Made by a program: the position numbers and the translations under genes. From the IMG/VR virus record IMGVR_UViG_2778261448_000009, positions 1-35,006 of that record: a stretch of DNA of 35,006 bases; one strand, given 5' to 3'. This DNA comes from a virus (lineage: Duplodnaviria > Heunggongvirae > Uroviricota > Caudoviricetes). The notes under the pieces were generated by a model. It was given only the letters and a program-made list of their open reading frames with translations, was not told the DNA's origin and ran no database searches. Of this stretch, positions 9,646 through 28,779 are shown piece by piece (position 1 is the first letter of the stretch; the number at the start of each line of letters is the position of its first letter).

Positions 9646-11658
9646 ATGCTTAAATTTCGCCGCGATCTTAACGGTTACGGTGGAGTTATTAACGAAGGGC
9701 ATAACGATCAATACGAGTTTGAAATTGCTTTCTCAAGTACACAGCCTTATCAGCGCCAATTTTGGGATGAGCAAAATCAAGAAATGGTGGTATTAGATGA
9801 AATTCTGGTACATACACCGGAAGCGGTTGATCTGTCTCGTCTGAATAATAACGCTCCGTTGCTGTTCAATCATAATTTCGATAATCATATTGGTGTCGTT
9901 TGTAACGCTCGAATCGATGCGGATAACGTAGGTCGTGCTCTGGTTAGATTCTCTAAGCATGGCACTTTGGCTAATGATATTCGCAATAAAGTCATTGAAG
10001 GTACGATGGAAAAAATTTCTGTCGGTTATGACATTAAAGAATATCACATCGACTACACCAAAGGACAACTGATTGTTACTAAGTGGGCACCCTATGAACT
10101 CTCATTTGTCACCGTTCCCGCAGACGATACGGTCGGTTTAAATCGCTCTCTAAATACTATCACAGTTAATTTGGAGGCTAAACGCGATATGACTAAAGAA
10201 CAAATTGAAGAAATCAAAGAAGAACAAGAATCCGCTCAGGTTGAAGAAACTCCGGTAGAAGAAAATAAAGAACCGGAAGTTGAAGAAACTCAAGAGCGCC
10301 AAGTTGAAGAGAATAAAGAAGATGAAAATCTCGAAGACGGAAAAGACGCTAAACATCCTGAAAGTGTTGATGATGATAGTTCAACTGTTCGGGAAACAGA
10401 AGAAGTAAAAGAAGAACGTGAAGCTGCTCCGGTTGAAGAAGAAAAAATCGAGGAAGTGGCTGAACGTTCCGAAGAAGACGAATTAGAAATTCGCGAAATT
10501 GCACGCGAGTTAAATATTAACGAAGACGATGAAGAATTTAAACGCGCATTGGCAAATAAAGAAATTACGCCGGAAGCATTCCGCACTAAGGCACTAAATA
10601 AAATCGCTACTGCTCAACGTAACAACGAACAACAAATTAAGGACTCTAAAATGGAAAAAACTTTTGACCTGAACAACGTAATTCGCTCTCTGGTAGATGG
10701 TGCTGCTCTGGGCGCTCATGAAGCTGAATATTCCGCTATGGCTGCTGGTGCTGCAATGCAGCGTGGTCGTGCTGCTCGCGGTGGCTCTGTATTCGTTCCG
10801 GCTGCTGCTATGCGTGCTGCTTCTGCTGGTAACACCAAAGCCGACCTGACCGCTATCACTGACGAAAAACTGATGACTGAATCCTACATCGAAATGCTGA
10901 TGCCGGAATCTGTTCTGGGTCGTCTGGGTGTGACTGTTTACAGTGGCTTGAACTCCCCGACCGCTATTCCAAAAATGACTAAATCCAGCGTTGACGCTTT
11001 CGGCTTCGTTGATGAAAACGGTGCTGCACCGGAAAGCAAAGCTGAATTTGCGAACGTGAAACTGTCTCCGAAAACTTTTGCTGGTGGCAACCCGATCAGC
11101 CGTCAGTCGCTGAAAACCGTTCCGGGCATCGCTACCCTGATCACTGATCACATTAACAAAGCTGTTCGCATCAAACTGGAACAACTGATTCTGTCTGATA
11201 AAGCTAACGACCGTGGTCCGGCTGGTCTGGTTAAGCAACTGGTAGACGCTAGCCGCGTTACCAAGAAAGCTGCTTTCTCTTACAAAGACTTCCTGAAAGA
11301 AATTGCAGCACTGACCGACGCTGGCGTTCCTGCTCAGGCGATCAAGTTTGCGATGAGCGGTGCAACTGCTTCTGAACTGGAATCTACCCTGAAAGATAAC
11401 GGCGTTTCCGGTTATATCATCGAAAACGGCAAACTGGCTGGTTACGAAGTAGTTACTTCTGGCGTTATCCCGGCAGACCACATCGTTCTGGGTGACTTCT
11501 CCGGTATTACTATCGGTGAGTGGGGAGGTCTGGAACTCGACATGGATCTAACTACATATAGGGATCGTGGTGCGGTAGTGCCTCGTATCTTTGTAGATTT
11601 GGACTACGTTGTAGCACAGCCGGAAGCTCTGAAAGTTCTTCACATCTCCGCTGAATGA
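9646..11658 (+). CDS. prohead protease (HK97 gp4-like) - acidic scaffold - major capsid protein, single 670-aa ORF
   Basis: N-terminal LLFNHNFDNHIG, ISVGY and YELSFVTVPA resemble HK97 protease motifs ALFNHD, SFAF and FDVSPVTYPA as I recall them. Residues about 185-300 are E-rich and repetitive. The C-terminal 330 aa have capsid-like composition. TGA stop. Confidence 0.7.
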   Translation: MLKFRRDLNGYGGVINEGHNDQYEFEIAFSSTQPYQRQFWDEQNQEMVVLDEILVHTPEAVDLSRLNNNAPLLFNHNFDNHIGVVCNARIDADNVGRALVRFSKHGTLANDIRNKVIEGTMEKISVGYDIKEYHIDYTKGQLIVTKWAPYELSFVTVPADDTVGLNRSLNTITVNLEAKRDMTKEQIEEIKEEQESAQVEETPVEENKEPEVEETQERQVEENKEDENLEDGKDAKHPESVDDDSSTVRETEEVKEEREAAPVEEEKIEEVAERSEEDELEIREIARELNINEDDEEFKRALANKEITPEAFRTKALNKIATAQRNNEQQIKDSKMEKTFDLNNVIRSLVDGAALGAHEAEYSAMAAGAAMQRGRAARGGSVFVPAAAMRAASAGNTKADLTAITDEKLMTESYIEMLMPESVLGRLGVTVYSGLNSPTAIPKMTKSSVDAFGFVDENGAAPESKAEFANVKLSPKTFAGGNPISRQSLKTVPGIATLITDHINKAVRIKLEQLILSDKANDRGPAGLVKQLVDASRVTKKAAFSYKDFLKEIAALTDAGVPAQAIKFAMSGATASELESTLKDNGVSGYIIENGKLAGYEVVTSGVIPADHIVLGDFSGITIGEWGGLELDMDLTTYRDRGAVVPRIFVDLDYVVAQPEALKVLHISAE

Positions 11659-12513: not shown

Positions 12514-13347
12514 ATGAATATTACACAAGATAACTTAGACATTTTCACGGGGTCACATGTTGTCGTTTCCGTGTCTGATATGGTTGATAACCAGCCGGAC
12601 TTCTTCGATCCCAGCTTTAGCCCGATTGATAACGTGGCATCATTCCCGACGATCACCGAATCCACCGAGATAGAAACTCTTGAGGAATATGATCATGATG
12701 CTACTGGTAAACTTGCCGGATACCGCAAATTAGAACCGACTACGCTTGTTTTAAACCGTGTTCTTGACGATGAACATCAAGCAATGTTGATGAAAGCGGT
12801 AGAGGATAAAACACCTTTACGCTTCCGTATGTTCTATGTTGTGAACTCTGGCTATAGTGCTGCTAACACTGGTTACTATGTCATCTATGACGCTTATGTC
12901 ACATCACACAAAACCCGTGGTAGTGATAACAAAGCTGTAACACTGGAATTTAAACTTGAACCAGATGGCGGGATTTTGGATCGCGGTATTGCAACCGAGG
13001 GTCGTCTGCTCCGTCAGGGCGATATGGGCGTTGGTGCAGGAATTAGCCCGTTCACTGGTCCTACCGATAGCGAAGTATTAGCGGGTAACAGATTTGTAAC
13101 TTACAAGGGAACTGCTAGCGGTAATCCATACTCAGCTGACACATCATTAATTCACCTTCAAGCTAATGAGCATGGCGCATGGCAATTAACCTGTAATACT
13201 TCTGGCGCACCGCGTTTACGTGTCCGAAATATTCAGGAAAACGGTCGTTCTGAATGGATCAAGGTATATTCCACCAATGAGAAACCGACACCTAGCGAAA
13301 TTGGCGCAGTGGCTAAGACTGACCGGATCGATTTCGGCGAATACTAA
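12514..13347 (+). CDS. major-tail-protein (gpV-like) paralog with an extra C-terminal domain, 277 aa
   Basis: N-terminal DIFTG motif shared with the 157-aa gene at 17022; DDEHQAMLMKAVEDKTPLRFRMF resembles lambda gpV [23 protein letters not shown] as I recall it; C-terminal EKPTPSEIGAVAK recurs in the fibre. Confidence 0.5.
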   Translation: MNITQDNLDIFTGSHVVVSVSDMVDNQPDFFDPSFSPIDNVASFPTITESTEIETLEEYDHDATGKLAGYRKLEPTTLVLNRVLDDEHQAMLMKAVEDKTPLRFRMFYVVNSGYSAANTGYYVIYDAYVTSHKTRGSDNKAVTLEFKLEPDGGILDRGIATEGRLLRQGDMGVGAGISPFTGPTDSEVLAGNRFVTYKGTASGNPYSADTSLIHLQANEHGAWQLTCNTSGAPRLRVRNIQENGRSEWIKVYSTNEKPTPSEIGAVAKTDRIDFGEY

Positions 13348-13428: not shown

Positions 13429-16400
13429 ATGCAATCAATCCAATTTAAACGCACACAGACGGCTGGTAAAAAGCCGACGCCGGAACAATTATCACAGGGT
13501 GAAATCGCCTTACAGTTGGCGGATCATGTGATTTACACCAAAGACAAAAATAATAACGTAGTCCAAATTAGTGTTTCTCCAGAAAAACACGCTGAACTGA
13601 ATACGAAAGTAGACACCAACAAGGTCAATACAGATAAAGTCATTTCAGCAAATAAAACCGAAGCCGCTAATAATCTGGCTAGTGCTAAAGCTGAACTGAA
13701 TCAGACTATCACTTCTACCCGTGATACTCTCAATGCTTCAATCACTGCTGGCGATACCGCAGCCAACAAACGAATTGATGCTTTGACTACCACAGTAGGT
13801 AACAATAAAACCGAAGCGGCTAACGCTCTGGCGGCTGCTAAGACTGAACTGAATCAGACTATTACTTCAACCCGCGATACTATCAACGCGACAATTAACA
13901 AGAACAAGACAGATATTAATGCGCGAGTTGATCAGACGAATACCAACGTTACCAACTTAACGAATACTGTCGCAGCAAATAAATCAGCAATAGAAAAGAC
14001 GGTAGCGGATAATAAGAAAGATGCGGACACGAAGATCACCAATCTTACTAGTACGGTCTCTGCGAATAAGACGGCCATTGAAAGAACTGTTGCAAATAAC
14101 AAGGCCAGTGCCGATGCCGCAATTGCCGCAGCTAATCAGCGAATTGATTCGATTGAAGGTAGTGCCGATGCTGCTTACATCAAGAAGAATACCAACACTT
14201 ACCATCACGGCTATCTGTTAACCAAAACAGCTAACTATTTGGAAGACCAGACAGCGAGAGATCTTAACTACTTTGGTGCTTTCCGTACCAATGGTCAAGA
14301 TGGACTCATGGATCTAACTCTTAACGTTCCTCACTCTGCCGGCAAAGCGCACGGTCGCGGATTTACTTTCCGTTATGCGTCTGGTGGATCTCGTGTTGAA
14401 ACCTATGGTTTTGATAGAGAAGGACAGAAGAACTTTAGCTATAAGATGTATCACGAAGGTGATAAGCCGACTCCTGGCGAGATTGGTGCATACACCAAAG
14501 CCGAAGTTGATAAGATGTTTGTTAAAAACGTCGTTATGTCTGTTCCCAATTCTAGCGAAAACGTATCTGCATATTTCAAATTGGCAACCGCAACAATTCC
14601 ACAAAACGGGCGTAGTGTGTTTTTCCGTATTCATGGTGGTAATGGTTACAACGTTACGGCATATGACCAAGTTGATGTAGTAGAAATTCTTCTCCGTAGT
14701 GGTAACGATAGACCTAAAGGTCTTAACGTAATTGCATACCGTAGAAATACAAACAAAGATTTTGAGGTATTTGCTGTCAATACTTCCGGTGATAACTATG
14801 ATATCTACGTGAAATATCAGCGTTATACCGATAACGTTATTGTCGAATATGGGAAATCTGTTTATGTAAGTTTGACGGTTTATGATACGCCGGAAGCCAC
14901 GTTAATTAAACCTTCCGTTGGTGTTATCGGTGGTCGCAACGTAACTCTTTTTAACACAGAAAATAAACGTGGTGTGTTGAGTTTTGACGATAACACACAA
15001 AATAGTTATGATATTGTTCACTTGAGTAATGATAGGGGTACTGGTCGGAAATATATTCGTAAATTCCGTAGCAACTATAACGAAATGATCTGGCATGAGA
15101 CGGTTCAAGGTTCTACTTATCGACTCGCCACGGGTAGTACAGATTCTCAGGAGATTCTATCCGTTGAATCTAGTAGCTCTATTGCTGGGACTCATAAAGG
15201 TAATATTCTTTCTGGTCGAATGATGTTGGGTGGCGGTAGTAATGTTATTACCTTGCGGCGTCCTGCTGGTCAATCCAACCATATTGCGTTTCAAGATAAT
15301 CGGACTGGAGATATTACCCGTCAAGGGTGGATCGGTTATGGTAATGCTGATACTAACGTTTTTGAATGGTATAGTGATGTAGGTGGTACTTCTATTCGTC
15401 ACCACATAGACGGACAGATCGAATTTCAGACAGGTAACACAAAACGAGTTTATACTAACGCTCAATTCATCTCAATGAATAGCGACGCCTACCGCATGAT
15501 CTACGGTAATTATGGTGCATTCTGGCGTAATGACGGCAATAAAGTTTATCTTCTTTCTACTGCCGAAAATGATAAATTGGGCGGATGGAATGGAAACAGA
15601 CCGTTCATTTACGATTTGACTAACGGTAAAGTTACTTTAGGCGGTGATGGTAACGAAGGTGCATTAGTTCTTGAAAGAGATAGCCGTGCTGCCCGTTTTA
15701 GCAACAATGTATTCTTAGAAAAAGGACTGCTTACTTTCTCTGCTGGTGGAAATCAGTCGATGGATTCTTTTACGATTAACCATTGGGGGAATAGTAATGC
15801 CAATCGATATAACGTTTTGCAATTCCAGGACACTAGCGGAACTCACTTTACTACAGAACGTAACGGTACTGGTGGCTTACTTGCTCATTTCCGAGGGGAT
15901 TTAACTACCGAAGGAAAATTAACGTGGGGCAAAAATACAGCTACTTCTAGCTTTAATATCCGTGCGTGGGGTGCTGATGCTCGTAAACAAGTATTCGAAT
16001 GTGCGGACGAAAGCGGTTGGCACTGGTACACACAACGACCGGGCGGTCCGGGTACTGAATTAATCGAGTTTGCCATCAACGGTACTGTTAAACCTAAAGC
16101 AATTCACACTGGCGGTAATATCACGCTTAACGGTGCTGATATTGAGTTTCGTCGCAGTGGCAATAAGCATTTGTGGTTTAGAGATCCAAATGGCTTAGAA
16201 TTGGGTCTGTTGTACTGCGATGATGCTGGCGTTATGCGTATGCGCGGTGAGAAACAAACCGAAGTCTGGAAATTCGGCGGTAAGATGATTCACCTTGAAA
16301 CGGGCACTGTATCCGGTGGCGGTAATGGTCTTATTCGTGGTAGCGTTGCTGGTGGTAGTTGGGCTAGCTGGCGTGATCGTGCTTCTGGTATTCAGGTCGA

Positions 16401-16965
16401 TTGTCAACAATCAACCGATTCCGCTCATAACGTATGGAAAGCAACCCATCAAGGTAAATATCATATCGCAGCAATGGGTGTACATGTTCCTAGCGGTACT
16501 ATCGGTAACGCTACAGTTAAACTTCATGTTCATGACGCTGGTTTTGACTTTAACGCTGCTGGTGACTTTACCGCAGGTCGTAACGGTTCGTTTAACGATG
16601 TTTACATTCGCTCTGACTCCCGTTTGAAGATTAACAAGGAAGAATTACAGGACGGTGCATTAGAGAAAGTAAACTCCCTGAAAGTATACTCTTACGATAA
16701 AGTTAAATCTCTTTCCGATGACACAGTGATTAAACGCGAAGTAGGTATTATTGCTCAGGATCTGGAAAAAGTATTACCGGAAGCAGTAGGTATTCAATCC
16801 ACCGAAGATCCAGAACATCCAGAAGCAATCAAGACTATTTCTAACTCTGCTGTCAATGCTTTAATCATCAAAGCAATGCAGGAAATGACCGCTAAGTTTG
16901 ATGCTATGGCTAAAGAACTTGCCGAAACTAAAGCTGAATTAGCCGAACTGAAAGCAACTAAATAA
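13429..16965 (+). CDS. side tail fibre, 1178 aa, with C-terminal intramolecular chaperone (peptidase S74-like) domain
   Basis: N-terminus MQSIQFKRTQTAGKKPTPEQLSQGEIALQLADHVIY; tandem about 50-aa repeats (NKTEAAN-LA-AK-ELNQTITSTRDT) at nt about 13650-13900; C-terminal SDSRLKINKEELQDG...VGIIAQDLEKVLPEAV followed by a coiled coil, as in self-cleaving fibre chaperone domains. Confidence 0.75.
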   Translation: MQSIQFKRTQTAGKKPTPEQLSQGEIALQLADHVIYTKDKNNNVVQISVSPEKHAELNTKVDTNKVNTDKVISANKTEAANNLASAKAELNQTITSTRDTLNASITAGDTAANKRIDALTTTVGNNKTEAANALAAAKTELNQTITSTRDTINATINKNKTDINARVDQTNTNVTNLTNTVAANKSAIEKTVADNKKDADTKITNLTSTVSANKTAIERTVANNKASADAAIAAANQRIDSIEGSADAAYIKKNTNTYHHGYLLTKTANYLEDQTARDLNYFGAFRTNGQDGLMDLTLNVPHSAGKAHGRGFTFRYASGGSRVETYGFDREGQKNFSYKMYHEGDKPTPGEIGAYTKAEVDKMFVKNVVMSVPNSSENVSAYFKLATATIPQNGRSVFFRIHGGNGYNVTAYDQVDVVEILLRSGNDRPKGLNVIAYRRNTNKDFEVFAVNTSGDNYDIYVKYQRYTDNVIVEYGKSVYVSLTVYDTPEATLIKPSVGVIGGRNVTLFNTENKRGVLSFDDNTQNSYDIVHLSNDRGTGRKYIRKFRSNYNEMIWHETVQGSTYRLATGSTDSQEILSVESSSSIAGTHKGNILSGRMMLGGGSNVITLRRPAGQSNHIAFQDNRTGDITRQGWIGYGNADTNVFEWYSDVGGTSIRHHIDGQIEFQTGNTKRVYTNAQFISMNSDAYRMIYGNYGAFWRNDGNKVYLLSTAENDKLGGWNGNRPFIYDLTNGKVTLGGDGNEGALVLERDSRAARFSNNVFLEKGLLTFSAGGNQSMDSFTINHWGNSNANRYNVLQFQDTSGTHFTTERNGTGGLLAHFRGDLTTEGKLTWGKNTATSSFNIRAWGADARKQVFECADESGWHWYTQRPGGPGTELIEFAINGTVKPKAIHTGGNITLNGADIEFRRSGNKHLWFRDPNGLELGLLYCDDAGVMRMRGEKQTEVWKFGGKMIHLETGTVSGGGNGLIRGSVAGGSWASWRDRASGIQVDCQQSTDSAHNVWKATHQGKYHIAAMGVHVPSGTIGNATVKLHVHDAGFDFNAAGDFTAGRNGSFNDVYIRSDSRLKINKEELQDGALEKVNSLKVYSYDKVKSLSDDTVIKREVGIIAQDLEKVLPEAVGIQSTEDPEHPEAIKTISNSAVNALIIKAMQEMTAKFDAMAKELAETKAELAELKATK

Positions 16966-17021: not shown

Positions 17022-17495
17022 ATGTCTCAACAATTCAAAGATATTTTTACTGGTGGTTTGGTAAGTCTGTTCTATCACGCTGATACCACTAACACCGATC
17101 TTGCTGATGAAGCATACGAAGAAATTAAAGAGTGTGCTGGTTTTCCTGAAACTGGTATCGAGCGCGGTACTGTAGAAGTTAAATCCTTCTCTTCTCAGTA
17201 TAACCGTAAACTGGTAGGGAAGCTGAACGTTCCTGATCTGACTCTGACCGTTAACTACATCCCAGGCGATGCGGTACATGAAAAACTGATCAAAGCTGCC
17301 GAAGACGGTACTCGTATTCAGATTAAAGTAGAATATTACGTTGACGCAGCAAAACAGACTGGTATTCGCACCGCTTTCAACGGCTTCATTTCTAAAGTTG
17401 CTATGAACGGTGGCGATGAAGAAGTTGTAACCAAAGAGTTTACCTTTGCTGTTGATGGTGCTCCGCTGAAACAGCAAATCTTCACTGCCGGATGA
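17022..17495 (+). CDS. major tail tube protein, gpV N-domain-like, 157 aa
   Basis: DLTLTVNYIPGD, EDGTRIQIKVEY, FNGFISKVA and TKEFTFAV parallel lambda gpV [32 protein letters not shown] and TRTVKVTNV as I recall them; RBS AAGGGGTAATT; strong terminator downstream; TGA stop. Confidence 0.65.
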   Translation: MSQQFKDIFTGGLVSLFYHADTTNTDLADEAYEEIKECAGFPETGIERGTVEVKSFSSQYNRKLVGKLNVPDLTLTVNYIPGDAVHEKLIKAAEDGTRIQIKVEYYVDAAKQTGIRTAFNGFISKVAMNGGDEEVVTKEFTFAVDGAPLKQQIFTAG

Positions 17496-17663: not shown

Positions 17664-18170
17664 ATGGCGAATGTCGTTAATAAGCCTGGCTGGGTCGGGT
17701 CATCTGCTGTTTCTGTAACTGGTCAACGATGGATGAGCGCAGCAATGAACGCATTAAAGGTTAGTCGCCCAGCTAACATGAGTGCGATGTGTGGTCGTGG
17801 TATGGATACGGTTGTAGCTACTGCTGCGTGGACTACTTCATTGGGTAATAACTGGGGTGTAACTGCTTCAAACTATCCAGTAACTGACATGCGCGGTAAA
17901 GGATCTATGGAGAACCCCGAAAACGTGGGCGTAGGGCGTCTGATTGGCGTTATCGTTGGTCAATTCAATGGTGGTACTCCTACTATGGCTGTATATCTCC
18001 AGAACGGTAGAGCGGGGAATATAACCGTTAATTTGGGTGGTGCTGCTGTCACTGTTCCTTATAACAGTATGCAAAGTGGTTTTCATTACTATTGGTTAAG
18101 CAATCCTCCGGCTGCTTTCCTAACAAATATTAAGAAGGCTGGCACTAAGCAGACTTTGAAAATCTCTTAA
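17664..18170 (+). CDS. hypothetical structural protein, 168 aa
   Basis: RBS GGAG before the ATG; sits between the tube and chaperone genes; Gly/Thr/Val-rich, beta-rich composition; no family recognised. Confidence 0.4.
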   Translation: MANVVNKPGWVGSSAVSVTGQRWMSAAMNALKVSRPANMSAMCGRGMDTVVATAAWTTSLGNNWGVTASNYPVTDMRGKGSMENPENVGVGRLIGVIVGQFNGGTPTMAVYLQNGRAGNITVNLGGAAVTVPYNSMQSGFHYYWLSNPPAAFLTNIKKAGTKQTLKIS

Positions 18171-18910: not shown

Positions 18911-21265
18911 ATGACAAAACATATAGTAACAATAGAAGGGGATAATAAAGGTCTAAGGAGAAGTACCAATCAGGCGATAGAGATGCTTGATAACCTTTCA
19001 GAAAGGGCAATGAATCTTGATTTGTCTGGTGGTTTATCTAGTTTAAGTGGAACCCTTCGCGGAACTGGTGGATCGCTTGCTTTGGCTGCTGGTGGTTTTG
19101 TTGGTTTGGCTGCTGGCGCTATTTCTGCTGCAAATGCCATCGGTGATTATGTAAAGGAATACAGCGAAGTTTCAAAAGCAACTGGTTTAACCGTCGAAAC
19201 ACTCCAGAAATTAGAGAAGCAATTCTCCGGTACTGGCTTAACCGTTGAGAAATTTGGTGATATTAACAAAGACACCTTAGATAAGCTGGCTGATGCATGG
19301 CGTAACGGTGGCGGTATTGAAGACGACCTAGAAAGTGTAGGTTTGAAGATTAAAGATTATGCCGAGTTTATGAACGATCCACAAGGCGGGATGAAAGCGG
19401 CGATCAAGGTCTTCTATGATATGCGCAAGGCTGGTGCGTCTATCGCTGATGTTAAGTTTATGATGGAATCGTTAGCCAGTGATTCAAGTCATATGGCTGA
19501 TGAATTGCAGAAATACGGATCTTATCAGGAAGCTGTAAACGCCATTAATCAGCAAACTGTTAAAATCACCAATGACACAGCCGAAGAATATAATAAATTC
19601 TCTAAAAATATGGATACCCTTACCGATAACTTAAAGGGTATGGCTGCAAATGCACTAAATCCAGTTGTTGAAGGGATGAATAATCTTTACAACTGGTTTG
19701 ATAAAGATTGGGAAAAGACCGCTTTATTCAACGCATTAAAGACTTTTAATGAAAGGTTTGAAAAAGCTCGCCAGAATATGGCTATGGCTAACGGTGGTTT
19801 TATTAACAAGCATGGTTATAGTTCTACTGGTCTAGCGGGTGGACAAGCCAGCTTCAACAATAAACCAAATTATCCTGATCGTTGGGTGGATAGTGAAGGC
19901 GTTACCCGTGATAAAAACGGTGATCCGGTAATTACTATCACTGGAAATAAATCGGATACCGGATTTACCCCAACGGGTCAAGGTGGAGGCGTCACCGGAC
20001 CATCGAAAAAAGAACAAGAAGAAGCCAAGAAGAAAGCGGAAGAGGCAGCTAAAAAGGCTAAGGAAGCCGCAGAAAAAGCACAGAAAGCACGCGAGGATGC
20101 AATCAAGCGACTGAATGCTCTTGATGTTAAATTGCAAGGACAGACAGCCGCGTCTATTGCTTCTCAAAACAAGCAGTTAGAAGCCAGCTTGAAAGATTTA
20201 GACACTGCTTTAGATATGGGCTTAATCTCTCAGCAAGACGCAGCCGCTAAACGTCAGCAACTGTTAGATCAGAACGCAGAAAACATCTATAAAATGATGT
20301 TGGGTGCTGATCCGATTGATGCTCTGAATGCCTTAACAGTTTTGCAACAAATCAGGGACAACGAGCTAGAAAGCCATAAACGGTTACTTGATGGTAAAGC
20401 TATCTCCTACGAAGAATATATGCGTCGTGTGAATGATACCGAGCAAAACTATTCTCAGATTGATAGTCAGTTACAGGGAATGGATGGTTTTAAAACCAAT
20501 CAATTGACTAATAGCTTAGACTATCAGGATTCAAATAACCCGTTTGCTAAATTTAATGCAATCGATCAAGAGAAATCGGAAGCTGAACAAGATTATAAGA
20601 CCGAAAAACTCAATATTGATGGTATTAATGATCCAGCTAAACGGATGGCTGCATTAGAAAAACTCAATGAAAACCATCAAAAACGGATGGCTGCAATTGA
20701 AAAGAAATATGCTGATGCTCGCCAGTCAATAGCCGATGATATGTATGGCGGTTTTGCTGCTGCAATGACTCTCTTCGGGCAGGAAAACACTAAAGCTATG
20801 CAGATGGCTTTCAATGCTCATAAAGCATTCTCCATTGGACAAGCGACGGTGAACATGTGGACGGCTGCTACCGATGCATGGAACGATCCGACCAACGTAA
20901 CCACAGGACAAAAGATCGCTGCTGCTGCATTGGCTGTTTCTCAGAACATGGGGAACATCGCAAACATCAAGTCTACTAACGTTAGCGGTATGGCTCATGA
21001 TGGTATCGATAATATCCCTCGTGAGGGTACATGGTTGCTTGATAAGGGTGAACGAGTAGTTGATCAGCGTACTAACGGTGATTTGAAAGACTTCCTTGCT
21101 GCTCAAAAATCAGGCGGTGGCAACTCTCAGCCGATTGAAGTTAACGCACCTTTGAACATTAACGGCAACGTTAATAGCTCAGACAAGATGGTCATGGATG
21201 CTATCAAACGTCACGCTAAGTTAGTTGCTCAGGCGGTAGAAGACGCACAACGCCGTAAGATGTAA
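18911..21265 (+). CDS. tail tape measure protein, 784 aa
   Basis: Position after G/GT; long helical Ala/Lys/Glu-rich repeats (KKEQEEAKKKAEEAAKKAKEAAEKAQKARE); Gly-rich N-terminal segment. Confidence 0.8.
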   Translation: MTKHIVTIEGDNKGLRRSTNQAIEMLDNLSERAMNLDLSGGLSSLSGTLRGTGGSLALAAGGFVGLAAGAISAANAIGDYVKEYSEVSKATGLTVETLQKLEKQFSGTGLTVEKFGDINKDTLDKLADAWRNGGGIEDDLESVGLKIKDYAEFMNDPQGGMKAAIKVFYDMRKAGASIADVKFMMESLASDSSHMADELQKYGSYQEAVNAINQQTVKITNDTAEEYNKFSKNMDTLTDNLKGMAANALNPVVEGMNNLYNWFDKDWEKTALFNALKTFNERFEKARQNMAMANGGFINKHGYSSTGLAGGQASFNNKPNYPDRWVDSEGVTRDKNGDPVITITGNKSDTGFTPTGQGGGVTGPSKKEQEEAKKKAEEAAKKAKEAAEKAQKAREDAIKRLNALDVKLQGQTAASIASQNKQLEASLKDLDTALDMGLISQQDAAAKRQQLLDQNAENIYKMMLGADPIDALNALTVLQQIRDNELESHKRLLDGKAISYEEYMRRVNDTEQNYSQIDSQLQGMDGFKTNQLTNSLDYQDSNNPFAKFNAIDQEKSEAEQDYKTEKLNIDGINDPAKRMAALEKLNENHQKRMAAIEKKYADARQSIADDMYGGFAAAMTLFGQENTKAMQMAFNAHKAFSIGQATVNMWTAATDAWNDPTNVTTGQKIAAAALAVSQNMGNIANIKSTNVSGMAHDGIDNIPREGTWLLDKGERVVDQRTNGDLKDFLAAQKSGGGNSQPIEVNAPLNINGNVNSSDKMVMDAIKRHAKLVAQAVEDAQRRKM

Positions 21266-21315: not shown

Positions 21316-21876
21316 ATGTTCAAATCCAAGAATATTAAAATCACAGATTTTACTCTTAAATCAAAACAACCTTTCTTCAAGGCGCAATCTATCTCCGGTA
21401 AGTTCCAGCGTCGCTTTACTGGCATCCATTTTTACGAAGCAGAATTTACCGCGAATTACATGGCTCAGGATATTAACGAAGTAAAAGAATTTGTAGCACG
21501 TCACCTTTTTGGTCGTCCTTTTAGTGTGCCACTGTCTTACTTTTCAAAATATACAGGTGATGTACGCCAGATGGTTACGGCTGCTGCTGGTACTGCTCGC
21601 GGTGGGCGCAAGGTAAGACTCTCCAACTTCACCGGAACACTGAAAGCGGGAACTATCATCCAGTTTGAGAACCACAAGAAAATCTACACGATCACCGAAG
21701 ACGTGAAATCAGGTGGTGAAATGAAACTCTTCCCTAACTTGCGCCAAAACGTCCTAGCGGGTGAGGTGATCAAGTATCAGAACGTAGAGGGCGAATTTCT
21801 TCTCAAAACAGAAAACATCGATTGGAAGATCGCCCAGATTGGCAAGATGAAATTCGAATTAGTGGAGAATGTATAA
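21316..21876 (+). CDS. minor tail protein (lambda gpM position), 186 aa
   Basis: Synteny after the tape measure gene; TAA stop overlaps the next ATG (TAATG). Confidence 0.5.
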   Translation: MFKSKNIKITDFTLKSKQPFFKAQSISGKFQRRFTGIHFYEAEFTANYMAQDINEVKEFVARHLFGRPFSVPLSYFSKYTGDVRQMVTAAAGTARGGRKVRLSNFTGTLKAGTIIQFENHKKIYTITEDVKSGGEMKLFPNLRQNVLAGEVIKYQNVEGEFLLKTENIDWKIAQIGKMKFELVENV

Positions 21877-22529
21877 TGGCAACTATTCAAGAATCATTCA
21901 GCAAACTATGCACCAATCTGGACTTCATCGAGGTCTACAACGACCAGACAGGGCAGAATGTATCTAGATTGACGCTACCGCAACTTTTCTCCACTGGATC
22001 GATGTTTCACATTATCGAAGCAGTCACCGCGTCAGGGGACGTTCTACGGCTTACAGATGGGTATTTCGATTTGGACTATAACGGTTTTACGTATCTCGCA
22101 ACGGGTGATTTTCTTCAAATCTCATCGAATACCGAAGAGAAGGAGATCAACAACAACGGGATCAACGTAACTGTTTCTAACGTTCGCGAGGAATACATTA
22201 CCTTGATTCGTAACAAGCAATTCGATAAATCTGATGTGAAAATCGAGATGGTTTTCCTGAACCCTAACACGGGCAAGGTTGAAACCACTTACCCTGTTTT
22301 CCGTGGGGTAGTCGATTCCATCGGGATTAACATCGAACATGAAGATGATGAGTGTAAAAACGAATCTGAATTTCAGCTTAATAGTATCTGGGAAGTTCTA
22401 GATAAAAACGCTCGTAGTCATGCTTCTGATGGTATCCACCGATCCTATGTTGGAAACGAGAACGATCTATTCTTCTCCCGTGCCGGGAAGTGGAACTCAG
22501 AATCAAAATGGTTTAGCTCTAAGAAATAA
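21876..22529 (+). CDS. minor tail protein (lambda gpL position), about 217 aa
   Basis: I place the start at the ATG at 21876 (MATIQESF), in frame with but downstream of the track start at 21822, because it overlaps the upstream stop as TAATG. Confidence 0.5.
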   Translation: MATIQESFSKLCTNLDFIEVYNDQTGQNVSRLTLPQLFSTGSMFHIIEAVTASGDVLRLTDGYFDLDYNGFTYLATGDFLQISSNTEEKEINNNGINVTVSNVREEYITLIRNKQFDKSDVKIEMVFLNPNTGKVETTYPVFRGVVDSIGINIEHEDDECKNESEFQLNSIWEVLDKNARSHASDGIHRSYVGNENDLFFSRAGKWNSESKWFSSKK

Positions 22530-22575: not shown

Positions 22576-22995
22576 ATGCTAAAAACTAGGCTTATCACCG
22601 ATTACATCAATTCTTTAATAGGTCAGGAGTTCGTTCAAGGTGAGAATGATTGCAATCTAATTGCATGTAAGATCATCGATATTCTCGCTGGTACTGACCT
22701 ATATAATTCTCTTTATAAAAAATATTCAACTAAAGAAGAAGGCTTGAAAATCTGCAAAGAATTAAGCGGGTATTCAAATATCCTTCAACCAATTAAGAAA
22801 CATTTCAAATTAGTCACTGATGATTTACAGGACGGCGACTTACTGGTCACAGCCCACAAATTAGGAAACCGTAATTATTATTCCGTAGTTCCTCATTATT
22901 CCGGTTATGGCCTCGTTGAAGAAGATGGTATCTGGATGACCATTCCTGTTTCAGACATTGACTATGAACAAGTTTATAGATTCGGGGGTGAATAA
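22576..22995 (+). CDS. tail tip assembly protein, NlpC/P60-like (lambda gpK C-terminal-domain-like), about 139 aa
   Basis: GENDCNLIAC and DLQDGDLLV parallel lambda gpK GVTDCYTL and AQPGDVLLC as I recall them; GGAGG 8 nt before the ATG at 22576, which is in frame with the longer track ORF 22420-22995. Confidence 0.5.
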   Translation: MLKTRLITDYINSLIGQEFVQGENDCNLIACKIIDILAGTDLYNSLYKKYSTKEEGLKICKELSGYSNILQPIKKHFKLVTDDLQDGDLLVTAHKLGNRNYYSVVPHYSGYGLVEEDGIWMTIPVSDIDYEQVYRFGGE

Positions 22996-25900
22996 TGGGA
23001 TTTGAAGTATTGGTAGGCGCGGTTATTGCTGGTGCTTCGGCGGGGATGGCGGCAGCCGCAACATTTTCGGTTATGACCGCAGTCGCTATCGGTATGGCTG
23101 CTGGTGCAATGACCTTGATCGCTTCCACTGTAGGCGCACCAAAAACACCGAAAGTACAAAGCCCGGATAATGCGGTGACACTAGGAACATCAAACGATCC
23201 TAAGACAGTATTACCCGTTCTTTTTGGTACTACCCGCACGGGTGCAATCTGCGTTTATAAGGCAATTTCCAAGCAAGAAAACAATAAGTTAGTGCAAATC
23301 TTCGCAATTGCCGAGGGTGAAATCGACCATTACAAAGCACTGTTTATCGATAACAAAAATGTTCTTGTTGGTAAGAACATGACGATCCGTGATGGTGTAC
23401 TGGACAAAGGCAACATTAAAGAAGAATATCGGAAAGTCTTAGAAGTTGAGTTCCGCACTGGTAAGAATCCTAACACCGCTTTGTCACTGGCAAAACGTCA
23501 TTTAGGATCAGACTGGAACGACAACTACAAAGGCAATGGTATTGCAACCATGTGTATTGTTTTACGCCGTGATGATAAATCTCTTGCTGCTGGTGTTGAT
23601 ATTCTCCAGCCAAATAGCCAGGTAGCGGTAGACGTTTGCGGCCTTAAAATTCGTAACCTTGAAACCAATGCTATTGAGGCTAGCACTAACGGCGTGGATC
23701 AGATTTTCCACTACCTAACAAATGAAAAATATGGCTTATCCGTACCAATTGAAAACATCAACGTTGATTCATTCCTGAAAGTACGTAAACAAGTACGCCA
23801 GATGGACCTACATTCAAACGGGGCATGTGATCCGAACGCCAGCTTTAAAGAGAACTTGACTAGCCTTATGCAGACTTTCGGCGGGGTGATGTTCGAATCC
23901 TTTGGACGTATTACCCTGAAACTGGATGCTCCTGATATTGTTAAGCATACCTTCAATGAAGACAATATTATGATGGGGAAAGTATCACTGAAAACAGGTG
24001 GCACTAACGGTTATTTCAATACCATTAACGCGATGTATCAGGAACCATCAATCGACTATTCCGAGCAAATGCTACGTTATCCGGCTGATGCTGAAAACGA
24101 TGCTACTATTCGTCAAGATGGTCGAATTATCGCTAAAGATATTGAATATCGTTTTGTTAAGTCTAAAGACCAGATTGATAAACTTGCGAGCATTGAACGA
24201 AATAAATCTCGTATCACTCAGGTTATCAGCTTTATGACTACTGACGCATTCACTGCCGAAGTTTGGGACGTTATCAGCGTAACCTATGATGAATTGAAGC
24301 TGAATAATTCCTTATGGCGTATTACTGCAATTGATCGCTCGATTGATTCTGGTATTGCTGGGATGATGACTATCACCGCCACAGAATATAATTCTCAGGT
24401 TTATACTGACCTGAACTATGCGGCAACTCCAGACAATAGACCAAGTGGTTTACCGGATTCAATGACAGTACAGAAGCCTACTAATTTCAGGATTAAGGCA
24501 ACTGGTGAGACGATTTACGGTAAAAACGTTACTTTGACATGGGATGCACCGGAAGATTTTAACCGTTATGGTTTCCAGATTGATTACCGTGTAAGTGGAT
24601 CGCCTAACTGGATTAAGCTGGGACAGACTTCACAGCAAATTTTCAGTGTCAATGCACTGGCTAAAGATCGCTCTTATGATTACCGAGTTTGTGCTTTCGG
24701 TATCATCGCTCGATCCGATTGGGTAGAACTGATTAACCAGAATCCTACTGTTACCTATGAATTGCCGACTCCGGTTATTCGAATCAAAAATCAGGGTAGC
24801 ACGCCAGGAACTTTCGAAGGTAATGATCTGATTATCGAATGGGAAAATCAGCAACAATTAGATGTTGAGATCAACGGTGAAACTAACAAGTTTAGTGACC
24901 TGTTTGAAGCATACATTATCAAGGTGACTAACAAGGCTGGTAAGTCTATTCAGTACCGTACCCGCGATCCTGAATCATGGACTTATACGCTTGATATGAA
25001 CCAGTTTAACGGCCTTTCGCGTCAACTGACGGTAGAAGTATCGGCTAAGGGCTATAACAACTCAGAGAGCGCCCCAGCGCGTTTAGTGGCTATCAACCCA
25101 CAACATAAGCCAATGAAAGGTTTTAGTGCGCGTGGTGGCTTTAATAGTGTGTTTGTTAGCTGGGCAGATGACGTAGAACATGATTATGCAGGGTCAATCA
25201 TCCAGTATGCAACCGATAACACTTTCTCCGATGCAAGGGCAGTAAGCACGAATAGTGTTAGCCATACTTCCTTTGATATTGCTGACGGTGATTATTATAT
25301 CCGTGGTGCTCACTACGATATTTTCGGTATGGATGATGCTGTTTGGTCTGAACCGTATTTCATGCAAATGAAATCTACCATTAGCTGGGACGATCAGGAC
25401 AAAGAAGCACTGGAAGACCTGATTGGTTTACAAGACCGCTTAGATGAAACTATCGCGGATGCTATTGCTCAAGCTGGCGCTAATGCCGATGCTAAAATTG
25501 ATGCAATGCATAAGCAAATCACTACCGAAACAGGGCAGACGGTCCAAGCCTCAGCCAATACCTTAAAGAGTCTGATTGCTACCAGCGAGCAAGCTAGCTC
25601 CACTAAGATTGATCAGGTTAAAGCTGAACTGAAAGGCGATATTAAGTCCGAAGTCAGCGCATCTGCTACTACCCTGAAACAAGCAATTGCTACCAGTGAG
25701 GCAGCAAGCGCAAGCAAGATTGATCAAGTTCGGGTAGAAATGGATGGCAAGATTGCTGGTGTGAATCAGGAAGCAGATGTAAAAATCGATGCTTTGAAGG
25801 GAACCATTAACAGCAAATATAATCTGGCGGTTAATGCAGATGGTCGCGTGGCTGGTATTCACATGAGCGCAACCAACGATCCGGCACAACCGACGAGAAT

Positions 25901-26771
25901 CATCTTTAATGCTGATAAAATCGCGGTAGCTCCACAGAACGGATCGGAAGTATGCCCGTTTGGTATCGAAGGTAACAAGGTTTATCTCGATAATGCGATG
26001 ATTCGTAATGCTGCAATTGGTACAGCCCAGATTAATGATGCGGCGATTACCACGGCTAAAATCGGCAATGCTGCAATTAACAGCGCGAAGATTCAGGACG
26101 GGGCAATCACTAACGCGAAGATCGTAAACGGTGCAATTGATAACGCTAAAATCGGTAACTATATCCAGTCTTCCAACTGGAACGGATCGACCGGATGGCA
26201 TATCAACAAGAACGGGTCCGCTACGTTCATGAATGCAACCGTTAAAGGTAATATCACGGCTGATTCTGGTACTCTGAACAACGTCACGATTAACTCTAGC
26301 TGTGTTATTAAGGGTATGCTCGAAGCTACTCAGGTTAAGGGTGATTTCGTTAAGGTGATTGGACGTAAGTTCCCGCATCGTGATGTTAACGTTGATAATG
26401 GTTATGCTGGTTATCCACAGGGAACGGTCACTGTTCGCGTTGAAGATGATCACAAGTTCGATCGTCAAATCGTTATTCCGGCAATTAGTTTTGGTGGATT
26501 GCGAGCGCGTGAAGGGTCGAACAATAATACGTTTTACGACACCTGTCGCCTGATTGTTCGTAAGAATGGGTCAGAGTTGTATAATAGGGCGTATGGCGGT
26601 AATACTGGTCTTTACTCAGGTGTTATTGATATGCCAGCGGGTAAAGGTGCTGTGACCTTGACCTTTGAAGTGCAATCAAGCGCAATCAACAACTGGACGC
26701 CTAGCACATGGATCAGTGATTTAACGGTAATGGTAACTAAAAAAGCCACTACTGGTATTACTGTTTCTTAA
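22995..26771 (+). CDS. central tail fibre / host specificity protein (lambda gpJ-like) with a gpI-C-terminal-like N-terminal segment, 1258 aa
   Basis: N-terminal Gly/Ala-rich hydrophobic segment plus TVLPVLFGTTRTGAICVY resembles the lambda gpI C-terminus (GNVLPVLYGEMRVGSRVV). C-terminal VTVRVEDDHKFDRQIVIPA, IDMPAGKGAVTLTFEV and LTVMVTKKATTGITVS parallel lambda J VTVTDDHPFDRQIVVLP, VDMPAGRGNVILTFTL and VQVMVIKKQALGISVV. Internal ATSEQASSTKIDQV and NAAI/KIGN repeats. Confidence 0.8.
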   Translation: MGFEVLVGAVIAGASAGMAAAATFSVMTAVAIGMAAGAMTLIASTVGAPKTPKVQSPDNAVTLGTSNDPKTVLPVLFGTTRTGAICVYKAISKQENNKLVQIFAIAEGEIDHYKALFIDNKNVLVGKNMTIRDGVLDKGNIKEEYRKVLEVEFRTGKNPNTALSLAKRHLGSDWNDNYKGNGIATMCIVLRRDDKSLAAGVDILQPNSQVAVDVCGLKIRNLETNAIEASTNGVDQIFHYLTNEKYGLSVPIENINVDSFLKVRKQVRQMDLHSNGACDPNASFKENLTSLMQTFGGVMFESFGRITLKLDAPDIVKHTFNEDNIMMGKVSLKTGGTNGYFNTINAMYQEPSIDYSEQMLRYPADAENDATIRQDGRIIAKDIEYRFVKSKDQIDKLASIERNKSRITQVISFMTTDAFTAEVWDVISVTYDELKLNNSLWRITAIDRSIDSGIAGMMTITATEYNSQVYTDLNYAATPDNRPSGLPDSMTVQKPTNFRIKATGETIYGKNVTLTWDAPEDFNRYGFQIDYRVSGSPNWIKLGQTSQQIFSVNALAKDRSYDYRVCAFGIIARSDWVELINQNPTVTYELPTPVIRIKNQGSTPGTFEGNDLIIEWENQQQLDVEINGETNKFSDLFEAYIIKVTNKAGKSIQYRTRDPESWTYTLDMNQFNGLSRQLTVEVSAKGYNNSESAPARLVAINPQHKPMKGFSARGGFNSVFVSWADDVEHDYAGSIIQYATDNTFSDARAVSTNSVSHTSFDIADGDYYIRGAHYDIFGMDDAVWSEPYFMQMKSTISWDDQDKEALEDLIGLQDRLDETIADAIAQAGANADAKIDAMHKQITTETGQTVQASANTLKSLIATSEQASSTKIDQVKAELKGDIKSEVSASATTLKQAIATSEAASASKIDQVRVEMDGKIAGVNQEADVKIDALKGTINSKYNLAVNADGRVAGIHMSATNDPAQPTRIIFNADKIAVAPQNGSEVCPFGIEGNKVYLDNAMIRNAAIGTAQINDAAITTAKIGNAAINSAKIQDGAITNAKIVNGAIDNAKIGNYIQSSNWNGSTGWHINKNGSATFMNATVKGNITADSGTLNNVTINSSCVIKGMLEATQVKGDFVKVIGRKFPHRDVNVDNGYAGYPQGTVTVRVEDDHKFDRQIVIPAISFGGLRAREGSNNNTFYDTCRLIVRKNGSELYNRAYGGNTGLYSGVIDMPAGKGAVTLTFEVQSSAINNWTPSTWISDLTVMVTKKATTGITVS

Positions 26772-26876: not shown

Positions 26877-27155
26877 ATGACTGAAATTATATATGGCGGT
26901 ATCGGTGTTATCGCCTTAATTTGTGGTGGGCTTTGGAGACTTCACCGAAATCAATTAGCCACAGAAAATAGATTGTCGAAATTAGAGTCCAATGATGCAT
27001 TGTTTAATCAGAAGTTTGAGACGATGCAAAGTAACCATGACCAGATCGCCGAGAGAGTTTATCGCATGGAACAAACCCTTCACGGTATAGAAAAGAAAGT
27101 GGTTGCGATGGACGCTAAATTTGACCAAGTTATCGATTTACTCAGACAAAAATAA
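26877..27155 (+). CDS. membrane-anchored coiled-coil protein, 92 aa (possible lysis-associated protein)
   Basis: N-terminal hydrophobic helix IIYGGIGVIALICGGLW followed by heptad-like sequence; RBS GGGGG. Confidence 0.45.
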   Translation: MTEIIYGGIGVIALICGGLWRLHRNQLATENRLSKLESNDALFNQKFETMQSNHDQIAERVYRMEQTLHGIEKKVVAMDAKFDQVIDLLRQK

Positions 27156-28425: not shown

Positions 28426-28779
28426 ATGTTAAGCAAACATTTTTCTCGCAAGGAATTTAAATGTAAATGCGGAAAATGTGATTATGATACAATCGACGCT
28501 GAATTACTGGTAATTCTTGAGGATGTACGAGAGCACTTCGGTAAACCAGTGATTATTAACAGTGGCAACCGTTGCCCGACTCATAACAAGAATGTAGGCG
28601 GTGCAACCAACAGCTATCACGTTCGAGGCCGTGCGGCTGACATTGTGATCAAGGGTGTCTCCCCTGATATTGTCCATGCTTATCTTGATGGGAAATACCC
28701 TACTCAATACGGCTTAGGCAAATATAAAACCTTTACGCATATCGATTCCAGATCGAAAAAATCACGATGGAATGGATAA
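28426..28779 (+). CDS. endolysin candidate, peptidase M15-like zinc peptidase, 117 aa
   Basis: SRKEFKCKCGKC...NSGNRCPTHN..VGGATNSYHVRGRAADI...FTHIDSR gives an H...D...H metal-ligand pattern as in M15-type phage peptidoglycan peptidases; terminator follows. Confidence 0.65.
   Translation: MLSKHFSRKEFKCKCGKCDYDTIDAELLVILEDVREHFGKPVIINSGNRCPTHNKNVGGATNSYHVRGRAADIVIKGVSPDIVHAYLDGKYPTQYGLGKYKTFTHIDSRSKKSRWNG

Follow-up and report, generated by a model that had tools for sequence, protein, structure and literature searches.

The present analysis concerns two genes at positions 22,576 to 26,771 (+ strand) of a 35,006-nucleotide stretch of tailed-phage DNA (IMG/VR record IMGVR_UViG_2778261448_000009, Caudoviricetes), referred to throughout as the window, which a first-pass annotation had read as a rearranged lambda-type tail-tip module made of a K-like and a J-like protein. 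We consider it probable that they are the last two tail-tip genes of a temperate Escherichia coli siphophage and that the plug of its tail tip is made in cis, within J. Judging from its similarities, J is a composite in which an N-terminus homologous to lambda gpI (residues 1-107) is joined to a hub core resembling pb3 of phage T5, with fibronectin-III (FN3) domains, and to a lambda-type tip.

The coordinates first given for the two open reading frames (ORFs) are exact according to the ORF list and the sequence, and the two proteins and the parts of J discussed below are as follows.

22576..22995 (+): K-like protein, 139 aa, DUF6950, single NlpC/P60-fold domain without JAB/MPN
22995..26771 (+): J-like central fibre/hub protein, 1258 aa (ORF list and sequence)
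22995..23135 (+): J aa 1-47, hydrophobic Gly/Ala-rich segment (composition, MAFFT alignment, profile match to 8iyk_I)
23136..23315 (+): J aa 48-107, corresponding to TAPI-C, the C-terminal domain of gpI (BLASTP, shuffles, tblastn)
23817..25067 (+): J aa 275-691, hub-domain core and fibronectin-III domains (J-family profile versus PDB pb3)
25788..26042 (+): J aa 932-1016, Phage_Tail_Tip fibre domain (Pfam PF09327)
26007..26156 (+): J aa 1005-1054, five tandem 10-residue repeats (BLASTP against lambda J leaves a 49-residue gap here)
26193..26771 (+): J aa 1067-1258, distal tip of lambda type, with the receptor-binding domain (Pfam Ig_GpJ_C, NCBIfam, PDB matches)

A GGAGG ribosome-binding site lies 8 nt upstream of the K-like ATG, and the K-like stop codon and the J start codon share one base (TAATG), so that no room is left for an I gene between them; an in-frame stop immediately precedes the start codon of J. 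The absence of a separate I gene, already noticed in the first reading, is borne out by this overlap, and the I-like segment corresponds to residues 1-107 of J. A sequencing or frameshift artefact was considered as the source of the fusion and was discarded, since 57 genomes and 44 viral contigs share the fusion; it is real.

That the J-like ORF opens with a segment resembling the gpI C-terminus had been proposed from the letters alone and is now supported by alignment statistics. In BLASTP, J 48-107 aligns to gpI 156-223 with 35% identity (E 4e-6), a score reached by none of 2000 shuffles, and the two segments have in common the patterns TP(K/R).Q..DN and VLPVL(F/Y)G..R.G; the motifs in J 48-107 read APKTPKVQSPDN and VLPVLFGTTRTG. 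When gpI 95-223 was run in tblastn with the low-complexity filter off, gpI 121-223 matched positions 23067-23315, i.e., J 25-107 (E 8e-5), which is the sole I-like sequence in the window, and a J-family profile compared with all PDB chain sequences recovered gpI chains (8iyk_I; E 2.8e-4 and 1.4e-3) over J 5-101 versus gpI 118-218. In the N-terminus of J, a small beta-rich domain comes after a hydrophobic Gly/Ala-rich stretch; J 1-47 and gpI 98-155 each contain 45% Gly+Ala and one charged residue (mean Kyte-Doolittle 1.6 and 1.3, respectively), and MAFFT aligned J 1-47 with gpI ~98-155. In a distant relative (L050), the N-terminal match to gpI was likewise reached by 0 of 2000 shuffles. The ubiquitin-like part of gpI left no trace: Lambda_tail_I (PF06805), which covers gpI 14-97 only, has no match in J 1-130, and tblastn of gpI 1-100 against the window gave a best E of 0.7, on the wrong strand. 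We also asked whether J 48-107 corresponds to the N-terminus of lambda gpJ rather than to gpI, a candidate that was rejected with 1158 of 2000 shuffles reaching the score; a collinear run-on of J 91-150 into gpJ 1-90 is weakly supported (19/2000 shuffles). In lambda virions only gpI 134/135-223 is resolved, where it forms a trimeric plug in the tip lumen, binds the C-terminus of gpH and beta-augments gpJ, while its hydrophobic stretch has been suggested to penetrate the outer membrane (PMC10721106, PMC12617516). At the level of sequence, J 1-107 is the homologue of this virion-resident part of gpI, and J 1-47 is predicted to act as a plug or membrane-insertion element.

One could object that the J N-terminus is a generic hydrophobic or signal-like leader whose likeness to gpI is compositional chance, the first 47 residues being low-complexity and Gly/Ala-rich. 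A tblastn search of J 1-115 against phages, which was run with low-complexity masking and is no measure of fusion frequency, found Escherichia phage DCP80 only, and the corresponding segment of the Seuratvirus CAjan has no significant match to gpI. However, the significant match lies in the non-hydrophobic residues 48-107, where the shared motifs are found, and neither the recovery of gpI chains from the whole PDB nor the shuffle result for L050 is what such a leader would predict, which makes this explanation most improbable.

Behind its gpI-like N-terminus, J is nearer to T5 than to lambda until its distal end is reached. The J-family profile matched the C-terminal half of pb3 (8hqz_A, 7zhj_b) with an E of 2.7e-21 over J 275-691 versus pb3 528-943, and there are weak Pfam matches to Phage-tail_3 (285-447) and fn3, whereas the core of lambda J is detectable over ~100 residues only (hhalign to lambda J 269-380, E 9e-5) and the first 800 residues of lambda J have no match in the window. 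Phage_Tail_Tip (PF09327) scores 66.2 bits on J 932-1016 against a cutoff of 22. Residues 1005-1054 hold the repeats NAAIGTAQIN, DAAITTAKIG, NAAINSAKIQ, DGAITNAKIV and NGAIDNAKIG, which are inserted immediately ahead of the lambda-like distal tip and have no equivalent in lambda J; their consensus is roughly N/D-[AG]-A-I-x-x-A-K-I-x, and they match no Pfam family. The tip itself matches Ig_GpJ_C (PF12421) at J 1124-1258 with an E of 5e-34 (117.7 bits versus a cutoff of 26.2), and NCBIfam lambda_TipJ (NF049904) gives 205 bits against a cutoff of 1950 over J 1068-1258 only (model 973-1163), so a full-length lambda_TipJ match above cutoff is not found in J. The last ~150 residues had been described at first as closely paralleling lambda J: their homology is clear and their identity moderate, 40-41% over the last 135-200 residues.

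The tail genes form a consecutive run on the + strand, in which the tape measure gene is followed by ORFs of 186, 217, 139 and 1258 residues; those upstream of the K-like gene are listed here.

18911..21265 (+): tape measure protein, 784 aa (phrog_13674 'tail length tape measure protein', E 5e-71)
21316..21876 (+): distal tail protein (Dit), 186 aa, T5 pb9-like (phrog_1302 'distal tail protein', E 1.8e-16)
21876..22529 (+): small hub protein, 217 aa, apparently the attachment domain only (phrog_2048 'tail protein', E 2.5e-27)

Dit matches Pfam DTP-pb9_B-dom weakly, and its best PDB sequence match is T5 pb9 (E 0.019, residues 11-143 versus 26-157). The hub protein, which occupies the position of lambda gpL and of g13 of the gene transfer agent RcGTA, reaches 24.8 bits with Pfam Phage_phiJL001_Gp84_N, slightly below the cutoff of 26; copies 98% identical to it are named DUF2163 or baseplate hub domain protein by PGAP, and phmmer against the PDB returned no match. 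It contains two cysteines (Cys12 and Cys160), versus eight in lambda gpL, and because of this number it cannot form a four-cysteine iron-sulfur cluster. NCBIfam offers no name for the Dit, hub or K-like proteins, and lambda M and L have no match anywhere in the window.

This arrangement of Dit, hub, a DUF6950-type protein of ~130-150 residues and a fibre of more than 1000 residues with an uncharged Gly/Ala-rich N-terminus is recurrent. It is kept by 44 of 44 IMG/VR relatives, in which the DUF6950 ORF always abuts J, and it is present in the Vibrio phages henriette 12B8 and 2.058.O, in Escherichia phage DCP80, in more distant metagenomic relatives (L050) and in the cultured Seuratvirus CAjan. 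Another protein search, based on the alignment of J N-termini, yielded one weak extra match, P0088, which does not have the hydrophobic N-terminus; tblastn of the gpI C-terminus against phages, again no measure of fusion frequency, retrieved ordinary separate I genes only, and two single-protein locus scans for DUF6950-type loci returned nothing.

Among the systems compared, CAjan (Seuratvirus, Queuovirinae) shows in gp15-gp18 an identical five-gene layout from the tape measure on, the four proteins being annotated as distal tail protein, tail protein, 'putative peptidase' and 'central tail fiber J'. Its ~144-residue protein is DUF6950-like, carries the GENDC motif and abuts J, and its J begins with 43 uncharged, Gly/Ala-rich residues, after which comes a VVYGTT motif; it differs in that identity is only ~41% over the first 50 residues of the peptidase-like protein, that J has 1040 residues and a different distal end, and that CAjan is lytic, with a genome of ~60 kb. 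In RcGTA, g12, g13, g14 and g15 (Bardy et al. 2020) correspond in order to Dit, hub, an NlpC/P60-type protein of ~140-150 residues and a protein of more than 1200 residues. The large protein has a hydrophobic N-terminus in both systems, and in RcGTA the megatron g15 has an N-terminal iris/penetration domain that closes the channel and whose entry into the outer membrane has been proposed, while the 150-residue peptidase g14 has peptidoglycan-degrading activity and may lie within the tail lumen (PMC7296036). The parallel is architectural only, because no sequence similarity to RcGTA proteins was detected, and there are differences: the hub of the window is shorter and has no Fe-S site, and the C-terminal end of J is lambda-type, not a fibre-binding domain. 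Among solved structures, the best sequence matches come from T5, with pb9 for Dit and pb3 528-943 for J 275-691, and the T5 plug likewise closes the tube, with a proposed membrane contact. In T5, however, the hub domain HDI and the plug are found in the single protein pb3, the plug being an internal insertion; there is no K-like protein, and the receptor is bound by the separate protein pb5.

With these comparisons in hand, the derivation from lambda can be weighed. According to it, a lambda-type M-L-K-I-J cassette was recently rearranged, with deletion of the JAB and ubiquitin-like halves and an in-frame I-J fusion. The I-like and J-like ends are clearly homologous to lambda, the K-like protein shares with gpK the NlpC/P60 fold and a position upstream of the I/J function, J 1-107 resembles gpI ~118-223 and J 1067-1258 resembles the gpJ distal tip; moreover, it has been speculated that K proteins without JAB are maybe degenerate forms typical of prophages (Iyer et al. 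2006; PMC1779556). There are also differences: K has no JAB/MPN domain, there is neither a ubiquitin-like domain nor a separate I gene, nothing similar to lambda M or L exists, the hub has no Fe-S cysteines, and the core of J, with its extra 50-residue decapeptide-repeat insert, is barely alignable to gpJ. Identities to lambda are only 30-41%, Dit and the core are nearer to T5 pb9 and pb3, and the lambda_TipJ model covers the last 191 residues only. The layout is conserved at 22-50% protein identity across prophages of E. coli and other Enterobacteriaceae, Vibrio phages, the lytic Seuratvirus and RcGTA. We regard a recent rearrangement of this kind as quite improbable, and the word 'rearranged' in the first-pass annotation does not survive. 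The tip is a distinct, established architecture with a lambda-type distal end, already present in cultured phages and gene transfer agents, and the window represents an uncultured new member of this previously described architecture.

The first gene of the pair encodes the K-like protein, which falls into Pfam DUF6950 (PF22262; 47.1 bits versus a cutoff of 27, residues 7-127), a family also matched by 54 of 55 of its relatives. An exhaustive profile search returned 56 relatives, nearly all of 77-151 residues, i.e., one domain or a fragment of one. A shallow profile of 13 sequences aligned to lambda K (reference L002, NC_001416) with an hhalign E of 0.099 and gave cohesin noise only in a PDB sequence search, so that a deeper alignment and a structure model were needed to place the protein. 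With the 55-sequence profile, residues 11-113 align to lambda K 58-149, the NlpC/P60 part, with an E of 4e-4 (probability 35%), the cysteine motifs and a GD(L/V)L strand being in register. Cys26, within the motif GENDC, is the sole invariant residue of the 55-sequence alignment and is aligned to the cysteine of the lambda K motif GVTDC, at the expected N-terminus of a helix, and the protein has the papain-like alpha+beta fold of NlpC/P60 (C40) peptidases; the sequence model PF00877 (NlpC/P60) finds no match in it and matches 1 of the 55 relatives (E 9e-5). The same Pfam scan recognized Prok-JAB, NLPC_P60 and a faint DUF6950 match at the cysteine motif in lambda K, but no Prok-JAB in the K-like protein, a single domain of 139 residues with no room for JAB, and tblastn of the JAB part of lambda K against the window gave an E of 0.45 or worse. 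The view of a K-like protein reduced to NlpC/P60, with no MPN/JAB domain, is correct by fold and gene position, whereas at sequence level its link to lambda K is weak. While examining the reference we noticed that the annotated lambda K (L002, NC_001416; 199 aa) holds only the C-terminal half of JAB (Pfam model positions 63-112), and that MTQTESAILAHARRCAPAESCGFVV..., encoded in another frame just upstream of K (lambda ~14130-14280), resembles the missing N-terminal half; the truncated JAB may be an annotation or frameshift quirk of the reference.

What the K-like protein does is less easily read from its fold. Its role is probably in tip assembly and/or local cell-wall cleavage, and its catalytic competence appears uncertain from sequence: the histidine of lambda K (PNHAAIY) aligns to Ser103, within an alignment whose probability is 35%, and a peptidoglycan-hydrolase role is doubtful because this canonical catalytic position is not conserved as His in DUF6950. 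An active, virion-borne peptidoglycan endopeptidase, ejected at infection (a role put forward for RcGTA g14) rather than serving in assembly, is nevertheless a possibility that we take seriously while thinking it unlikely. The fold, the invariant cysteine, the activity and possible lumenal location of RcGTA g14, and a histidine, H94, that is nearly invariant in the enterobacterial subclade are all in its favour. Against this, H94 is not conserved family-wide and is Glu in P0026, gpK was not detected in lambda virions (PMC10721106, PMC12617516), and the prophage has its own endolysin of the M15 D-Ala-D-Ala carboxypeptidase type (28426-28779, +, further downstream of J).

Returning to a plug made in cis, it is tempting to propose the following sequence of events, drawn by analogy with the structures known for lambda, T5 and RcGTA. 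The N-termini of three J chains would form a plug that closes the tail lumen and would hold the C-terminus of the tape measure protein, a partnership suggested by the gpI-gpH contact of lambda (PMC10721106). Binding of the J C-terminal domain to an outer-membrane protein would open the tip, and the hydrophobic N-termini, once exposed, would insert into the outer membrane and let through the tape measure and then the DNA. Because the plug would be encoded in cis within J, the phage could dispense with gpI's ubiquitin-like carrier domain as well as with gpK's JAB peptidase domain, and K could be reduced to its NlpC/P60-fold half as a separate protein of 139 residues. It was reported earlier that I-J fusions accompany K proteins devoid of JAB, and proposed that the JAB domain of K releases the ubiquitin-like domain of gpI/TAPI (Iyer et al. 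2006; PMC1779556); the joint absence of JAB and the ubiquitin-like domain here fits this proposal and does not prove it. One may go further and speculate that gpI's ubiquitin-like domain and gpK's JAB domain make up a dedicated delivery-and-release system needed only for a plug made in trans, and that DUF6950 is a cysteine-dependent assembly or processing factor acting on the J plug, not a hydrolase; this extension is a conjecture to which we give rather low credence. If it were true, the I-J fusion with its JAB-less and His-less DUF6950 protein would be a natural control for the 2006 Iyer-Aravind idea, and the role on the J N-terminal plug would be one not described for the DUF6950 family.

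Several observations weigh against the reading we favour. The hub protein has no four-cysteine Fe-S site such as that of gpL and RcGTA g13, and no RcGTA chain appears among the PDB matches of the J profile (E<=1), the K profile (E<=10) or the hub (E<=5). The J N-terminus of CAjan is similar in composition, but its gpI match is not significant (117/2000 shuffles). Pairwise BLASTP of the K-like protein against lambda K finds nothing (E 39), the hhalign probability is just 35%, and the Ser103 column is mostly Ser or Ala across DUF6950, with His in the minority. Finally, an AlphaFold2 (AF2) model of J 1-480 built from 8 sequences has a mean pLDDT of 49.5, with residues 1-85 below 50, and was used neither for a fold search nor for the question of the plug.

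At the other end of J, the best PDB sequence matches of the tip are 9wca_J, 'A8 gpJ' (E 5e-54), and lambda J (E 3e-35). The nearest characterised tip is gpJ-A8, with 48-49% identity over ~190 residues, so that about half of the residues differ; lambda J comes second. Lambda J binds LamB and the chimera gpJ-A8 (PDB 9wca; Brodel et al. 2024) binds OmpC, both trimeric porins. The A8 and lambda tips are 51% identical to each other yet recognize different porins, and therefore the receptor is not assignable at such identity; a porin-type receptor, as first suggested, is plausible from these similarities. Among prophages that are at least 96% identical up to residue ~1000 of J, the last ~250 residues come in at least four alleles that share 54-78% identity, with breakpoints near residue 1000 or 1100 (loci L014, L020, L022, L028 and L030), and more distant relatives (L036, L043 and L046) have unrelated J C-terminal ends. 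Such a hypervariable end is, as far as sequence can tell, the expected signature of a host-range determinant. It is worth noting that the J tip is not the sole candidate for host contact: the window also encodes a 1178-residue T-even-type long tail fibre (13429-16965, +; Gp34_trimer E 2.5e-23, phrog_1699 E 1e-141), with a C-terminal Peptidase_S74 intramolecular chaperone, and a 168-residue Gp38-type tail-fibre adhesin (17664-18170, +; Gp38_N E 1.8e-15, phrog_1121 E 6e-33). A T-even-type fibre and a Gp38-type adhesin within a siphophage tail operon constitute a second host-recognition device beside the J tip, and it looks unusual for an S74 chaperone and a Gp38-type adhesin to occur together. 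No lom/cor-type exclusion gene that could serve as a receptor hint was recognized downstream of J.

The enterobacterial host that the first reading had suggested is confirmed, because 57 of 5426 complete E. coli genomes carry the 5.9-kb tip region chromosomally, with identities of 80-98%. These prophage copies are integrated beside ycdY/csg, with a large serine recombinase, and protein relatives are found in Salmonella, Citrobacter, Klebsiella and Providencia. By megablast, the tip region matches none of 50,697 phage records and nothing in the plasmid collection; this prophage lineage has no DNA-level relative among the deposited phages, yet it inhabits ~1% of complete E. coli genomes. The closest deposited phage is Escherichia phage DCP80 (L001, PQ671644), whose J is 38.6% identical and whose Dit and DUF6950 genes are unannotated. 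DCP80 is filed under Straboviridae/Gaprivervirus, and T4-type genes (motA, endonuclease VII) stand a few kb from its siphophage-type tip module; the record may be chimeric or misclassified.

That one polypeptide unites the plug of lambda gpI, the hub core of T5 pb3 and the receptor-binding tip of lambda J supports the view that siphophage tips are built of the same domains, split differently among genes, and that the virion-resident part of gpI was originally the N-terminus of a hub/fibre protein. With this locus, the purpose of gpK's JAB domain and of gpI's ubiquitin-like domain can be tested in a clean comparison, and its four or more exchangeable lambda-type receptor-binding alleles could be grafted onto lambda-based delivery vectors, as has already been done for gpJ-A8 and gpJ-1A2.

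A few other genes of the window deserve mention. Two tail-tube-like genes, both assigned to phrog_158, flank the long tail fibre gene (12514-13347, +, 277 aa, and 17022-17495, +, 157 aa), and the 157-residue protein also matches lambda-like TTP Pfam models; this pairing suggests a duplicated or split tube gene, or the insertion of a fibre cassette. Just downstream of J, a 92-residue protein (26877-27155, +) has one N-terminal hydrophobic helix and a coiled-coil tail. Further upstream, a single 670-residue ORF (9646-11658, +) joins the major capsid protein to a prohead serine protease domain, with Peptidase_S78 at residues 40-162 and Phage_capsid at residues 412-666.

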